From: an uncultured Verrucomicrobiae bacterium
GTDB lineage: Bacteria; Chlamydiota; Chlamydiia; Chlamydiales; Rhabdochlamydiaceae
Direction: 5' to 3'
NCBI GenBank assembly: GCA_963818965.1
Contig: CAWFUG010000008.1
Span: 64,001 to 128,000 of the forward strand
Length of the DNA stretch: 64,000 bases
Shown here: piece by piece, positions 25,768 through 28,925 of the stretch
Position numbering within the stretch: the first letter of the stretch is position 1
Layout of the letters: the number at the start of each line of letters is the position of its first letter
The notes under the pieces: generated by a model
Databases searched by the model: none
What the model was told of the DNA's origin: nothing
Seen by the model: the letters and a program-made list of their open reading frames with translations, nothing else
Translations under genes and position numbers: made by a program

Positions 25768-26565
25768 ATGTCGCTAGCGCTTCTCTTGGCTCTTTATGTA
25801 CTCGTTGGCGGTGCTGCAGGCATCGTGGGTGGATTGTTAGGCCTCGGCGGCGGGGTCGTCACGGTGCCGTGCCTTTTGCTCATTTTTCGGCATCTCGATT
25901 TTCCTCAAGATCACGTGATGCTGATGGCCATCGTCACCTCCTTAGCTGCGATGGTCTTCAATACGATAGGAGCGACGTGGGCCCACAATAAAAGGGGCAA
26001 TGTCGTCTGGCCGGTTGTCAAGAAGATGTTCCCTGGCTTTTTAGTGGGCTCGGTTCTCGGCGCTTCGATCGCGACATTTCTTCCAGAACGAGCCCTTGAG
26101 ATCTTCTTTGGGATTTTTCTCTGTCTTCTCGGGGTCTATTTCTTCTTTAAAAAGACGAAGGTACATGCCCACTACGCACTCCCCTCTGCCCCTGTATTGA
26201 GTCTTTTTAGCTTGGTGATCGGAGCGATCTCTAATATTTTGGGAATTGGAGGGGGTGCCATGACCGTTCCGCTCCTCATGAATTTCAAATTTGAAGAGAA
26301 AAAGGCAATCGGTACTTCCTCTGCGACGACGCTGATCTTGACGACTCTGGGAGCAATTTCTTATCTCATTTTAGACTGGAAACGCGGGATGGGTCCTGAG
26401 ACAGTGGGATTTTTGAATATACCGGCTTTTTTGACAATTGCGATCGTCAGCTTTTTTACGGCACCCCTCGGGGTGAAATTGACCCATATCCTGCCTGTAA
26501 AGGTGGTCAGGCAGATCTTTTCTGTCGTCGTGATCCTCACTGGAATCTCAATGTTTGTGGACTAA
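25768..26565 (+). CDS. TauE/SafE (sulfite exporter-type) membrane protein
   Basis: GLLGLGGGVVTVP and ILGIGGGAMTVP repeats, AIGTS; GGAGG RBS. Confidence 0.88.
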   Translation: MSLALLLALYVLVGGAAGIVGGLLGLGGGVVTVPCLLLIFRHLDFPQDHVMLMAIVTSLAAMVFNTIGATWAHNKRGNVVWPVVKKMFPGFLVGSVLGASIATFLPERALEIFFGIFLCLLGVYFFFKKTKVHAHYALPSAPVLSLFSLVIGAISNILGIGGGAMTVPLLMNFKFEEKKAIGTSSATTLILTTLGAISYLILDWKRGMGPETVGFLNIPAFLTIAIVSFFTAPLGVKLTHILPVKVVRQIFSVVVILTGISMFVD

Positions 26566-27704
26566 TGCCCTGTTGCCTGACGAATTTTCATCACATCCGT
26601 CCCCGTTACGAAATCGATCAAGAAGTACTTCTCGAGTGGATCGCTTCGACTCATGCGCAGGCTGCGGTCTCTGCGGAAAATCGGGATTACGAGGAGGTCT
26701 ACCAGGAGATCCAGGGTAAAATCGCACGGATCTGGGGGGGAAGTCGGGCGATCGAGAAGAAAGGGATTCAGATTCGGGATGTATTAGAAGCGGTGGATCG
26801 AGAGATCTACCCTATAGGAACACATCCTCGTGGTAGGGGGTTTAAAGAGCGGAGTCAATTTTTCGATCGAGAAGCGACAGAAATCCTACAGGCTTTTTAC
26901 CCAGAAGAGGCTCTCCTTCCGGCTCATCTGATTCACGTGACCTGCACGGGCTATGTCGCACCGAGCCCCGCCCAAAGGCTCGTCGCTTTAAGAAACGCAG
27001 GGGAACGGACGACAGTGACTCACGCTTACCATATGGGTTGCTATGGAGCCCTCGCTGCGATCCGCATGGGAGCGGGATTTCTCTTTCTCCCCTTTTCCGA
27101 TCCTTCTGTCGATATCGTCCATACGGAGTTGAGCAGTTTGCATATGCACCCTTTGCGCCACTCGATCGAACAACTGCTCGTTCAGAGCTTATTTGCCGAT
27201 GGCTTTATCAAGTACAGCCTCACCTCTCAAACCGATCAGCCCCATTTCAAGACGTTAGGTCTACTCGAAGAGATCTTGCCTGAATCGAGCGAATCGATGA
27301 CCTGGCGTTGCGAAGACCACGGGCTCAGCATGACCCTTTCAAGAGAGGTCCCCGTTCTGATCAACCGCTCTCTAGATGGCTATCTGACGCGCCTCTCCGC
27401 TCTGGCAAAGGTCGATCTTTCTACGATCAAAGCAAAAGCCCTCTTTGCCGTTCACCCGGGAGGACCGAAGATCTTGGATTATGTCGAAAAGCGCTTCTTC
27501 TTAACACCGGAGCAGATGCGCTATTCTAGAGCGGTGCTGCGCGACTGTGGCAACATGTCCTCAGCGACGCTTCCCCATATTTGGGAGAGAATTTTAAATG
27601 ACCCTGAAGTCCCCGATCAAACCTATGTCTTAAGCCTCGCCTTTGGACCGGGACTGAGCATTTCAGGTGGGGTCTTTCAAAAGTGCACGGGAAAGGTTGT
27701 ATGA
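26565..27704 (+). CDS. Type III polyketide synthase (chalcone/stilbene synthase-like)
   Basis: HVTCTGY, HMGCYG (Cys), LFADG, VHPGGPKIL (His), GNMSSAT (Asn), AFGPGL. Confidence 0.9.
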   Translation: MPCCLTNFHHIRPRYEIDQEVLLEWIASTHAQAAVSAENRDYEEVYQEIQGKIARIWGGSRAIEKKGIQIRDVLEAVDREIYPIGTHPRGRGFKERSQFFDREATEILQAFYPEEALLPAHLIHVTCTGYVAPSPAQRLVALRNAGERTTVTHAYHMGCYGALAAIRMGAGFLFLPFSDPSVDIVHTELSSLHMHPLRHSIEQLLVQSLFADGFIKYSLTSQTDQPHFKTLGLLEEILPESSESMTWRCEDHGLSMTLSREVPVLINRSLDGYLTRLSALAKVDLSTIKAKALFAVHPGGPKILDYVEKRFFLTPEQMRYSRAVLRDCGNMSSATLPHIWERILNDPEVPDQTYVLSLAFGPGLSISGGVFQKCTGKVV

Positions 27705-28201
27705 TTCTAGCGCTGCTCCTCCCCTTCTTCATCCAAATGAGCGTCATCGGGATCGATGAGTTTTGTTTCCATGTCAAACGGGGCTTGCCCAAATGGGAAT
27801 GTATCGGCCATCCCCTCGATACGCTGACCGTGCTCTTTTGTTTTGGGTTTCTCTTGCTTTTTCCCTACTCCCCTTTTCATCTTAAGATCTACTGCGGCCT
27901 CGCTGTCTTCTCTTCTCTTTTTGTCACTAAAGATGAGTTCATCCACAAGGAGTGCTGTGCGGCGTCAGAACAGTGGTTGCACGCGCTCTTGTTTCTCAAC
28001 CATCCCGTCGTCCTCAGTGCAGCGGGACTCTTGTGGCCTCTCATCGATGGCGTGTCTCTCTTTGCTTGGATGGATCCCTTGCTCAGCTATAAAGCGTTTT
28101 TCCGCCAGTTTCTCATCGTACAAACGCTCTTTACAGCTCTATTTTTCAGTTACCAAGTCCTGTATTGGAATTTTTTAAGGAAACCCCATGTCGCAGATTG
28201 A
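27701..28201 (+). CDS. Uncharacterised membrane protein in the PKS operon
   Basis: ATGA overlap with PKS stop; hydrophobic helices with polar motifs DEFCFH, IGHPLD, KDEFIH, EQWLH. Confidence 0.75.
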   Translation: MILALLLPFFIQMSVIGIDEFCFHVKRGLPKWECIGHPLDTLTVLFCFGFLLLFPYSPFHLKIYCGLAVFSSLFVTKDEFIHKECCAASEQWLHALLFLNHPVVLSAAGLLWPLIDGVSLFAWMDPLLSYKAFFRQFLIVQTLFTALFFSYQVLYWNFLRKPHVAD

Positions 28202-28925
28202 CAACGCTTTTTACGAGGATTTAAACGAGAAGTGGTATGAGGAAGAGGCGCATCCCGTTGCCCTTTTGCGCGCTGAAAATGCAACGCGCAACCCGTGGAT
28301 TCTCAAGAAAATCGAAGAGCTGCTCGGAACCTCCTGCACCATTTTAGACATCGGCTGTGGTGCGGGTTTTTTAACCAACACCCTCGCAAAAGCAGGACAC
28401 CGCGTGACGGGGATCGATTCTTCAGAGTCGAGTCTAAATATCGCAAAGATCCGCGATGAGACCCACTCGGTCGAGTACCTTCAGAAAGACGCCTTTTCTA
28501 TGGACTATGCGCAAGGGAGTTTTGATGTCATCTGCGCGATGGACTTTTTGGAGCACATCGAAGAGCCGGAGCGGATCGTCCAGATGGTCTCCTCTTTTTT
28601 AAGACCGGGTGGGCTCTTTTTCTTTCACACGTTTAATCGCAATATTTTAAGCTGGCTCATGGTGATCAAAGCCGTCGAGTGGCTCGTTCCCAATACTCCC
28701 AAAAATATGCATGTCTATCCCCTCTTCATTAAACCCAAAGAACTCGAAGGTTGGCTGAAGGCGGAAGGCCTTGAGGTTCAAGAGATCCGAGGGCTCACCC
28801 CTCATTTCTGCTCCACCGGGTTTTTGAGAAGCCTCATCAAGCGGCGGATCCGCCCCGATTTTCGCTTTACCTTTACCCCCTCGTTGCTAATCGGTTACGT
28901 CGGAGTAGCCGTTAAACAAAAATAA
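28188..28925 (+). CDS. UbiG-like SAM-dependent O-methyltransferase
   Basis: ILDIGCGAGFL, FDVICAMDFLEH, LRPGGLFFFHTFNR, FIKPKEL. Confidence 0.85.
   Translation: MSQIDNAFYEDLNEKWYEEEAHPVALLRAENATRNPWILKKIEELLGTSCTILDIGCGAGFLTNTLAKAGHRVTGIDSSESSLNIAKIRDETHSVEYLQKDAFSMDYAQGSFDVICAMDFLEHIEEPERIVQMVSSFLRPGGLFFFHTFNRNILSWLMVIKAVEWLVPNTPKNMHVYPLFIKPKELEGWLKAEGLEVQEIRGLTPHFCSTGFLRSLIKRRIRPDFRFTFTPSLLIGYVGVAVKQK

Follow-up and report, generated by a model that had tools for sequence, protein, structure and literature searches.

Ubiquinone biosynthesis pairs UbiG/Coq3 with hydroxylase partners that are flavoproteins (UbiI, UbiH and UbiF) or, in the case of Coq7, a di-iron enzyme, and its logic is that the ring of a membrane-bound phenolic lipid is first hydroxylated and then O-methylated. 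The arsABCD operon of Azotobacter vinelandii provides the alkylresorcinols and alkylpyrones of the cyst. A further group of systems combines a type III polyketide synthase (PKS) with a methyltransferase and an FAD-dependent oxidoreductase: srsABC of Streptomyces griseus, pkqABC of Mycobacterium smegmatis and Streptomyces, and hidABC of cyanobacteria and Planctomycetota are described as producing methylated alkylresorcinols, alkylquinones or hierridins (PMC6836626, PMC10896814, PMC9927152). For chlamydiae, two surveys give type III PKS clusters as antiSMASH counts only, without chemistry (PMC9666466, PMC13229535). Among the papers that our searches listed, type III PKSs in Chlamydiae are mentioned at the antiSMASH level only and none, judged by title or abstract, deals with alkylresorcinols in these bacteria. 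Here we characterize a chlamydial locus that has genes for a type III PKS and for a UbiG-family methyltransferase on either side of one for a membrane protein.

A four-gene transcription unit in an environmental chlamydia

We analysed a 64,000-nucleotide (nt) stretch of chlamydial DNA (the window). Four overlapping open reading frames (ORFs) on the same strand encode a TauE permease, a type III PKS, a 166-amino-acid membrane protein that we label MEM and a UbiG-family methyltransferase that we label MT, as follows.

25685..25711, + strand: terminator-like hairpin (12 pairs and a T run), between an upstream 218-aa ORF and TauE
25768..26565, + strand: TauE/SafE-family (TSUP) permease, 265 aa (PF01925)
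26565..27704, + strand: type III PKS, 379 aa, ArsB/ArsC-like (PF02797; PDB 3vs9/3vs8)
27701..28201, + strand: MEM, five-helix membrane protein, 166 aa, of a family without description
28188..28925, + strand: MT, UbiG-family class I SAM O-methyltransferase, 245 aa (TIGR01983)

Read from the sequence, the junctions consist of a TAATG at 26563-26567 between TauE and PKS (1-nt overlap), an ATGA at 27701-27704 between PKS and MEM (overlap of 4 nt) and, between MEM and MT, 14 shared nt at 28188-28201, exactly as an earlier sequence-only reading of the locus had reported. The start of MEM was taken as ATG 27701 (the ORF listing also offers GTG at 27683); the ATG starts of the operon genes match the beginnings of their homologues, and purine-rich, Shine–Dalgarno-like stretches are visible by eye before three of the four (AGGAGGG, GGAAAGG and AAGGAAA). 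The hairpin at 25685..25711 has the longest stem among the 10 sites returned by a pattern scan alone, against 6.0 ± 2.5 expected, and is likely the 5′ boundary of the unit. Together, TauE, PKS, MEM and MT form a real four-gene transcription unit. The genome also holds three full-length TLC nucleotide-transporter genes and one further partial match, whereas none of 14 control genomes gives a match, and there are relatives labelled Chlamydiae or Rhabdochlamydiaceae; both observations support the obligate intracellular setting suggested previously.

Conservation of the PKS-MEM-MT core

PKS, MEM and MT are adjacent and co-oriented at 78 of 80 loci from related chlamydial genomes. The adjacency extends to 80 more distant metagenome loci, in which MT adjoins MEM at 70 of the 74 that could be assessed and PKS lies directly upstream at 55 of 69; the arrangement is far beyond chance. 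The sequence-only reading had named a lack of co-occurrence elsewhere as one outcome that would speak against it, but the three-gene core proved to co-occur widely. The proposal of a four-gene operon stands for this genome, where all four genes overlap, but does not extend to all relatives as far as the permease is concerned: TauE (PF01925, E 6.3e-52, full length at profile positions 2-237 of 237) lies directly upstream of PKS in no more than 25 of the 68 relatives that could be assessed, whereas 18 have it at another place in the flank and 25 have none there (11 more were not assessable), and it is thus a lineage-specific partner outside the conserved core. A redoxin gene found downstream at 48 of 80 chlamydial loci and at 0 of 80 metagenome loci was rejected as a pathway member and is read as conserved chlamydial synteny.

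At 13 of the 69 assessable metagenome loci MEM-MT occurs without any adjacent PKS, and the two proteins may therefore have other substrates. These loci adjoin RND pumps, an MFS transporter and YceI lipid-binding proteins, neighbours that, together with the small, polytopic build of MEM and the TauE permease upstream here, would fit MEM (perhaps with TauE) as a transporter or flippase that carries a phenolic lipid or its precursor across the inner membrane. We consider such a function very improbable: 25 of the 68 relatives that could be assessed have no TauE in the flank, no pathway is obvious in five helices whose polar cluster lies on one side, and the fusion of MEM to a cytoplasmic methyltransferase, described below, better suits an enzyme complex.

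Among 400 sampled chlamydial species genomes, 125 carry MEM and 175 a type III PKS, about 125 of the latter being of the high tier. Family tallies over these 400 genomes place MEM and the cassette-type PKS together in the same genomes, and in nearly every genome with a type III PKS there is just one PKS match. When chlamydial type III PKSs lacking MEM were inspected, 6 of 8 loci encoded a PKS-MT-FAD-oxidoreductase trio. Because other chlamydiae thus carry this cassette without MEM, MEM occupies the known hydroxylase slot, a point that is new relative to the earlier observation. Because kin are not independent, phylogeny may explain why the two cassettes exclude one another. Among 701 flanking ORFs of 160 loci we found no recurrent FAD monooxygenase neighbour. 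Pigmentibacter ruber is a cultured, free-living carrier, with WP_158998894.1 as its MEM homologue.

PKS is a predicted alkylresorcinol synthase

The C-terminal domain of PKS matches PF02797 (E 6e-22), and the best PDB matches, 3vs9 and 3vs8 (both ArsC; E 6e-59 and 4e-57), align over residues 80-373, leaving the first approximately 80 residues outside the alignment. Both halves of the chalcone/stilbene-synthase thiolase fold are present; only the ArsC alignment supports the N-terminal half, for which Pfam model PF00195 did not reach E 0.01. The Cys-His-Asn triad noted in the sequence-only reading is intact (C159, H297 and N330) and invariant in all 117 aligned cassette PKSs, and a resorcinol-type Trp can be added to it. 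This residue, W247, is likewise Trp in 117 of 117 cassette PKSs; it aligns with the Trp of 3vs9 (a G284W mutant) and the Gly of 3vs8, that is, with the position of Trp281 in ArsB and Gly284 in the pyrone synthase ArsC. Exchange at this Trp/Gly residue switches cyclisation from pyrone to resorcinol, according to PMC6274091. We predict that PKS is an alkylresorcinol synthase; the ArsB-type Trp and the triad make a resorcinol product probable.

MEM belongs to a widespread family of membrane proteins

MEM has 1311 relatives, falling into 283 clusters at 50% identity, and is carried by at least 559 species genomes overall. It has no Pfam or NCBIfam match, and relaxing the Pfam search to E up to 10 over 53 members brought up no family in more than two of them. 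The ESM Atlas returned unnamed clusters only and no usable named match, the best hit of a PDB profile search was PsaK at E 0.62, and Foldseek found no PDB entry that matched the MEM model with an E of 0.001 or better. A wide fold search with VIA-align reached Z 9.4 at best (bestrophin), which is in the noise range for helical bundles, and its further matches (MakB/MakE, FliS and the transmembrane domains of pentameric channels) were generic bundles within noise; all were discarded. Across Pfam, NCBIfam, PDB, Foldseek and VIA, we detected no sequence or fold likeness to FA_hydroxylase/CrtZ, Coq7, AOX or hemerythrin-like oxygenases. A search of openly accessible papers found no published description of the family. 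By its sequence, MEM is a member of a widespread, undescribed membrane-protein family.

Comparison of 53 sequences revealed eleven invariant residues (D19, H24, R27, E33, D40, S71, K77, D78, E90, H94 and H101). The AF2 model of MEM (pLDDT 95.7, pTM 0.90) has five helices, and the His, Glu and Asp residues among the invariant ones lie where helices 1 and 3 end and where helices 2 and 4 begin. Four (Asp/Glu)-x2-3-His pairs are spread over four helices at a single depth. The distribution of Lys and Arg (7.1 versus 1.1 per protein) indicates an N-out/C-in topology and puts the invariant cluster on the K+R-rich, cytoplasmic face, the side of the cytoplasmic MT. An invariant His/Asp/Glu cluster in a protein of no described family agrees with the His/Asp-motif membrane protein seen in the sequence-only reading, which had proposed it as an unrecognised metal-dependent tailoring enzyme. 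Alignment of hairpin 1 with hairpin 2 by hhalign recovered the expected register (DE..H/DE..H and E...H/E...H) at a probability of 3.8% and P 0.011, which is suggestive only of a two-hairpin symmetry by internal duplication. We judge it an even call whether MEM is catalytic and binds metal. The narrower assignment as a metal-dependent ring hydroxylase is possible, with the balance leaning against it; that MEM resembles no known oxygenase or metalloprotein in sequence, profile or fold and that the cassette has no electron-donor gene both count against a hydroxylase.

MT is a UbiG-family enzyme coupled to MEM

MT scores 151.2 bits with the UbiG model TIGR01983, above the equivalog cut-off of 102.95, and also matches PF13489/PF08241 (class I SAM fold). 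Among solved structures it is nearest to E. coli UbiG (4kdc, E 1.2e-32, residues 7-204), and the earlier description as UbiG-like therefore holds. The 87.85%-complete genome lacks a UbiA 4-hydroxybenzoate prenyltransferase of a ubiquinone pathway, its only two PF01040 (UbiA-superfamily) genes being MenA and heme O synthase; MT is thus UbiG-family in sequence without being a ubiquinone enzyme. The natural substrates of UbiG are vicinal-dihydroxy rings, and enzymes of the UbiG type work on membrane lipids.

Nine of the 13 longer MEM family members are MEM-MT fusions, the two are fused at 7 of the 80 metagenome loci, and in 14 diverse fusions a linker of roughly 10-20 residues joins them. AF2 modelling of a natural fusion yielded well-folded domains joined by a disordered linker (pLDDT <50); with a pTM of 0.63 it leaves the relative domain positions loose, and a fixed MEM-MT interface cannot be claimed. 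Complex prediction for separate MEM and MT scored 0.00 in two runs without controls and counts neither for nor against an interaction.

MEM and MT are the tightest pair of the cassette (70 of 74 assessable loci, 7 fusions among the metagenome loci, and 9 of 13 longer members fused), and this coupling, the absence of a redox partner from the cassette, the lack of likeness between MEM and oxygenases and the action of UbiG-type enzymes on membrane lipids would all fit a MEM that is no oxygenase. Instead, it could be a membrane dock that also presents the substrate, perhaps with some acid-base chemistry, and keeps the head group of the alkylresorcinol at the cytoplasmic leaflet for MT; the product would then be an O-methylated alkylresorcinol, serving as a structural or protective phenolic lipid like the Azotobacter cyst lipids or hierridin precursors. 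However, a dock needs fewer than eleven invariant residues, most of them His, Glu or Asp that form (D/E)-x2-3-H pairs across four helices, a resorcinol is unlike the vicinal-dihydroxy substrate typical of UbiG, and a flavoprotein fills the third slot of the parallel chlamydial cassette. We regard a docking role as somewhat unlikely.

Proposed pathway and the quinones of the host

Our preferred explanation, held tentatively and at a little less than an even chance as a whole, is that PKS makes an alkylresorcinol, MEM modifies its ring and MT O-methylates it. PKS would condense a long-chain acyl starter with malonyl-CoA and form, by aldol condensation, a 5-alkylresorcinol that would stay in the inner membrane. 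MEM would present its four (Asp/Glu)-x2-3-His pairs at the cytoplasmic leaflet and modify the ring, most likely by metal-dependent hydroxylation, the step for which the known three-gene systems use flavoproteins (SrsC, PkqC and HidB). MT, tethered beside MEM and in some lineages covalently fused to it, would O-methylate the resulting catechol- or hydroquinone-type ring, hydroxylation presumably preceding methylation, to give the chlamydial membrane a methoxy-alkyl-(hydro)quinone or a methylated phenolic lipid. The end product is likely to derive from an alkylresorcinol and to be a methylated phenolic lipid or quinone.

The sequence-only reading had called for a check of the men, mqn and ubi pathways, which returned a complete men operon (MenG/UbiE-MenF-D-H-B-A-E), no PF02621 match in the 87.85%-complete genome and no ubiquinone prenyltransferase; the futalosine route to menaquinone, represented by PF02621, was accordingly rejected in favour of the classical men route. 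With a complete men operon the host has no need for a replacement quinone, but a second quinone is still allowed, since actinobacteria have polyketide quinones alongside menaquinone (PMC9927152). There, pkqABC (a type III PKS with Trp281, a methyltransferase and an oxidoreductase) is described as giving an alternate electron carrier that coexists with menaquinone and is spore-induced. The chlamydial product could, like PkQ in mycobacteria and Streptomyces, be a polyketide quinone that carries electrons beside menaquinone at some developmental stage or at low oxygen, a function compatible with the preferred explanation. The genome encodes quinol oxidases (cytochrome bd and CyoC/CyoE), and MT belongs to the UbiG family of quinone biosynthesis. 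We nevertheless find a quinone function unlikely: the complete men operon leaves no need for it, the hydroxylation that it requires hangs on a putative activity of MEM, and the cassette is patchy in the phylum (125 of 400 genomes), as expected of an accessory trait.

A more far-reaching version of the preferred explanation, which we think improbable to a similar degree, would see in MEM the founder of a new class, aromatic-ring hydroxylases that are integral to the membrane and have a His/carboxylate di-metal site facing the cytoplasm. This class would have replaced the flavin monooxygenase in one lineage of polyketide-quinone cassettes, would act as a unit with the UbiG-type methyltransferase and would supply environmental chlamydiae, as well as some Myxococcota, Acidobacteriota and Bdellovibrionota, with a second quinone of polyketide origin in addition to menaquinone. 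The cassette is common among chlamydiae, and the family of its middle gene has neither a name nor a Pfam model nor a solved relative. If MEM is a hydroxylase, it would be a new solution to a step carried out by flavoproteins, Coq7 or P450s in the ubiquinone, plastoquinone, sorgoleone and polyketide-quinone pathways, and obligate intracellular bacteria would make their own phenolic or quinone lipid. The occurrence of MEM in one chlamydial cassette and a flavoprotein in the other provides a clean contrast for complementation, and the cultured, free-living P. ruber makes the question testable.

Comparison with known systems

The ubiquinone system supplies the chemical precedent, in that the sequence of ring hydroxylation and O-methylation proposed here is the same; it differs in that this genome has no ubiquinone pathway and MEM no detectable likeness to Coq7 or any hydroxylase. 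The ars operon supplies the closest solved relatives of PKS, the ArsC structures 3vs8/3vs9, and shares with it the triad and, at the residue that switches cyclisation, the Trp of ArsB. Near the operon described here there are no fatty-acid synthase genes of the ArsA/ArsD type, and to our knowledge the ars operon has neither a methyltransferase nor a MEM partner. With respect to srs, pkq and hid, the FAD-dependent oxidoreductase (SrsC, PkqC or HidB) is not in this operon, where MEM is the third gene, the gene order is PKS-MEM-MT, and MT, by its TIGR01983 match, falls in the UbiG equivalog family. The locus shares with these systems a resorcinol-type type III PKS, an adjacent SAM methyltransferase and the three-gene logic, and their classical trio is itself present in other chlamydiae (6 of 8 loci).

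Operon layout and genome setting

The genes for a TauE permease, a type III polyketide synthase (PKS), a 166-aa membrane protein of an undescribed family (MEM) and a UbiG-family SAM methyltransferase (MT) are arranged head to tail on the forward strand, with large ORFs on both sides.

Features of the operon region (window coordinates)
21733-24738, - strand, large ORF, 1001 aa
25685-25711, hairpin of 12 pairs plus T run, between the upstream ORF and the operon (pattern scan only)
25768-26565, + strand, TauE ORF, 265 aa
26565-27704, + strand, PKS ORF, 379 aa
27701-28201, + strand, MEM ORF, 166 aa counted from ATG
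28188-28925, + strand, MT ORF, 245 aa
29003-31267, + strand, large ORF, 754 aa
31271-34051, + strand, large ORF, 926 aa
34071-36395, + strand, large ORF, 774 aa (coordinates only)

Direct reading of the DNA bore out the overlaps claimed in the sequence-only reading: TAATG between TauE and PKS (26563-26567), ATGA between PKS and MEM (27701-27704) and 14 nt shared by MEM and MT (28188-28201). Purine-rich, Shine–Dalgarno-like stretches, judged by eye, precede three of the four starts. The source genome (2.24 Mb, 12 contigs, 87.85% complete) carries three full-length and one partial match to TLC nucleotide-transporter genes, which were found in 0 of 14 control genomes, and the closest relatives bear the names Chlamydiae, Rhabdochlamydiaceae or Parachlamydiales; the setting of the operon is chlamydial.

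Over the PKS and MEM genes (26001-28000) G+C reaches 0.506; the adjoining 2-kb bins have 0.447 and 0.452, and 22001-24000 has 0.406. This rise is mild and stays inside the range of 0.39-0.53 seen over the whole window. Upstream of the terminator-like hairpin, a 218-aa ORF with a hydrophobic N-terminus (24988-25644, + strand) has no family in Pfam or NCBIfam; three of 80 related loci (L013, L019, L039) encode relatives a few kb 5′ of the cassette, and the ORF is outside the cassette core. By eye, the 1001-, 754- and 926-aa ORFs appear paralogous, with N-terminal IAQ.YAALV and C-terminal DDPVDLFLCGTE..CQ in common, and Pfam gave no family for either of the two large flanking ORFs that were scanned. 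The three downstream ones span about 8 kb between MT and the Redoxin (37120-37629) and malic-enzyme (37590-39305) genes, which follow close behind the operon in 48 (Redoxin) and 33 (malic enzyme) of 80 related loci. These large ORFs look like a lineage-specific gene-family expansion and are perhaps effectors.

The PKS–MEM–MT core is conserved

A MEM relative is encoded in at least 559 GTDB species genomes (of 597 pattern matches). Among the best 80 of these loci, PKS, MEM and MT are adjoining and co-oriented in 78, so the three-gene core does co-occur elsewhere, contrary to the refuting condition set in the sequence-only reading; the exceptions are a contig edge directly after MEM (L016) and a PKS inverted just downstream (L067). 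Where the PKS lies upstream (79 loci), TauE directly precedes it in 25, is found at another place within the 5-kb flank in 18, has no in-flank copy in 25 and is non-assessable in 11; TauE is thus a lineage-specific addition found in the window's closest relatives.

For a more distant comparison, 80 loci were found in metagenomes with a non-chlamydial query alignment, for which 592 pattern matches included 417 that encode a relative. MT is next to MEM in 70 (absent in 4, non-assessable in 6), and 55 have the PKS immediately upstream (absent in 14, non-assessable in 11). One of the 14, L153, has its PKS just downstream of MT, and the other annotated PKS-less loci adjoin RND pumps, an MFS transporter or YceI-like lipid-binding proteins. 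By source name, MEM members come from Chlamydiota, Acidobacteriota, Myxococcaceae and the cultured Pigmentibacter ruber.

YceI follows PKS-less MEM–MT pairs directly in five metagenome loci (including L136, L141 and L168), and such lipid-binding proteins recur beside phenolic-lipid genes, the chlamydial case being a YceI–PKS–MMPL locus (L181, G001:C5:140300-151200); a lipid/isoprenoid-binding protein is mentioned for the 'Saltatorellus ferox' cluster in an excerpt of PMC10896814. In L161 and three other metagenome loci (a cluster of four), a 396-aa UbiA-family prenyltransferase lies on the opposite strand immediately 3′ of MT, and ring prenylation is a possibility in some versions of the pathway.

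PKS, MT and TauE belong to known families

TauE matches the TauE/SafE permease family over its full length (PF01925, E 6e-52). The PKS matches PF02797, and its best solved relatives over residues 80-373 are 3vs9 (E 6e-59) and 3vs8 (E 4e-57), which the review PMC6274091, in the part consulted, lists as Azotobacter ArsC G284W and wild-type ArsC. The same part gives Trp281 of ArsB as directing aldol cyclisation to resorcinol and Gly284 of ArsC, at the same switch position, as directing lactonisation to pyrone; there our alignment places Trp in the PKS, as in 3vs9, versus Gly in 3vs8. C159, H297, N330 and W247 are invariant in all 117 PKSs aligned, which are near full length and come from related cassettes (73 in genome loci, 44 in metagenome loci). 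The PKS is ArsB-type. MT scores above the NCBIfam UbiG equivalog cut-off (151.2 versus 102.95 bits), its closest structure is E. coli UbiG (4kdc, E 1.2e-32), and it is a UbiG-family enzyme.

MEM is a membrane protein family with an invariant polar cluster

MEM has no match in Pfam or NCBIfam, and no known family emerged from a Pfam search with 53 members up to E 10, a PDB profile search (best E 0.62), Foldseek or a wide VIA-align search (best Z 9.4, generic bundles); the clusters returned by the ESM Atlas, from Chlamydiota, Myxococcota and Bdellovibrionota, were all unnamed. The family itself is large, with 1311 relatives at E <=0.001 in a collection clustered at 90% identity, forming 283 clusters at 50% identity. 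Across 53 diverse members D19, H24, R27, E33, D40, S71, K77, D78, E90, H94 and H101 are invariant, and E20, H37, E79 and H82 are conserved at >=90%.

An AlphaFold2 model from the 53-member alignment (pLDDT 95.7, pTM 0.90) has five helices (2-27, 31-53, 58-85, 88-115 and 122-159). The conserved residues form DE-x3-H-x2-R at the end of helix 1, E-x3-H-x2-D at the start of helix 2, KDE-x2-H at the end of helix 3 and E-x3-H-x6-H at the start of helix 4; because all adjoin the two short hairpin loops, they should lie on one side at one membrane depth. Hairpins 1 and 2, compared as profiles, aligned in the expected register, but weakly (probability 3.8%, P 0.011). Lys plus Arg per protein average 3.02 in loop 1-2, 1.13 in loop 3-4 and 2.94 at the C-terminus, versus 0.19 at the N-terminus, 0.36 in loop 2-3 and 0.58 in loop 4-5, which under the positive-inside rule gives an N-out, C-in protein with its polar cluster toward the cytoplasm. 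The predicted C-in topology agrees with fusions to MT: a C-terminal class I methyltransferase follows the MEM domain in 9 of 13 longer family members, MEM and MT share one frame in 7 of the 80 metagenome loci, and the linker is only about 10-20 residues in 14 diverse fusions aligned. MEM thus has five helices and an invariant His/carboxylate cluster on its cytoplasmic side, next to MT.

By a narrow margin we favour the tailoring enzyme of the sequence-only reading. The PKS would, with good probability, make a 5-alkylresorcinol. MEM might then modify the ring of this lipid where it meets the membrane surface; metal-dependent hydroxylation is the most plausible reaction, an assignment we make tentatively. 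MT would methylate the hydroxyl so introduced, of catechol or hydroquinone type, and the product would be a methoxy-alkyl-(hydro)quinone or a methylated phenolic lipid. The main rival, almost as probable, is that MEM serves only as an anchor and presents the lipid to MT.

In one database protein, P0244 (282 aa), a PKS C-terminal domain (PF02797, residues 60-197) is followed by the first ~70 MEM residues (206-277). It is the single case found and could be a true PKS–MEM fusion or a contig-end read-through.

The genome has a complete menaquinone operon

The sequence-only reading had proposed a phenolic lipid or an alternative respiratory quinone and pointed to the men, mqn and ubi pathways. The same contig carries, at a distance of about 200 kb, a classical menaquinone operon that is complete (MenG/UbiE, MenF, MenD, MenH, MenB, MenA, MenE); MenB, MenD, MenE, MenA (TIGR00751), isochorismate synthase and MenG/UbiE score above cut-off and MenH below it (178.6 versus 208.55). 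MqnA and MqnD families had no match in the genome (87.85% complete), and it has just two genes of the UbiA superfamily, MenA and heme O synthase, so the UbiG-like MT stands outside any ubiquinone pathway. Cytochrome bd subunit I and a CyoC-like subunit are both present. Because the men operon is complete, the main quinone does not need the cassette. The product may be a structural or protective lipid, or an alternate electron carrier; by analogy it may act as a second carrier beside menaquinone, as an excerpt of PMC9927152 describes for PkQ, which exists alongside menaquinone and is induced in dormant spores.

Two alternative cassettes in one phylum

In 400 evenly sampled genomes of the window's phylum, MEM occurs in 125: 66 of 89 in its own family, 35/69 in f7, 10/23 in f3, 2/46 in f6, 0/29 in f4 and 0/17 in f30. 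The window PKS matched 175 of the 400 at E <=1e-20, with a single match in almost every one, in two tiers. The first (about 125 matches, 40-62% identity) comprises the same genomes as MEM by family tallies, the exceptions seen being G331, whose MEM is reduced to a remnant of 36 residues, and G258, whose PKS is a fragment at the end of a contig. The second (about 50 matches, roughly 30-35% identity) comes from genomes without MEM, mostly f6.

We fetched and annotated eight second-tier loci. Six (L179, L180, L182, L183, L184, L186) encode a PKS, a class I methyltransferase and an FAD-dependent oxidoreductase; L181 has YceI, PKS and MMPL, and L185 has PKS, methyltransferase and then a DUF6851/VCPO-like protein. 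Clustering of 701 flanking ORFs from 160 MEM loci revealed no recurrent flavoprotein near MEM. Together, the FAD trios and this result indicate two alternative three-gene cassettes in one phylum, and MEM occupies the slot held by the hydroxylase in the other chlamydial cassette.

MEM-less cassette of L185 (G115:C3:897000-908000)
5057-6145, - strand, ORF of the PKS cassette
4248-5045, - strand, ORF of the PKS cassette
2840-4252, - strand, ORF of the PKS cassette

The third position of L185 holds, in place of the flavoprotein, a 471-aa DUF6851/VCPO_2nd (vanadium chloroperoxidase-like) protein, which by analogy hints at halogenated phenolic lipids; for hierridin C chlorination, the halogenase is still to be identified according to an excerpt of the review PMC6836626.

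Comparison with known systems

This type of pathway is not new, and chlamydial type III PKS clusters have been tallied before; we found no description of the MEM family or of the PKS–MEM–UbiG-like cassette in the literature searched. The main new point is the presence of two alternative chlamydial cassettes, with either MEM or a flavoprotein in one slot. The six MEM-less trios have the layout of the srs/pkq/hid clusters, as these are set out in excerpts of PMC6836626, PMC10896814 and PMC9927152.
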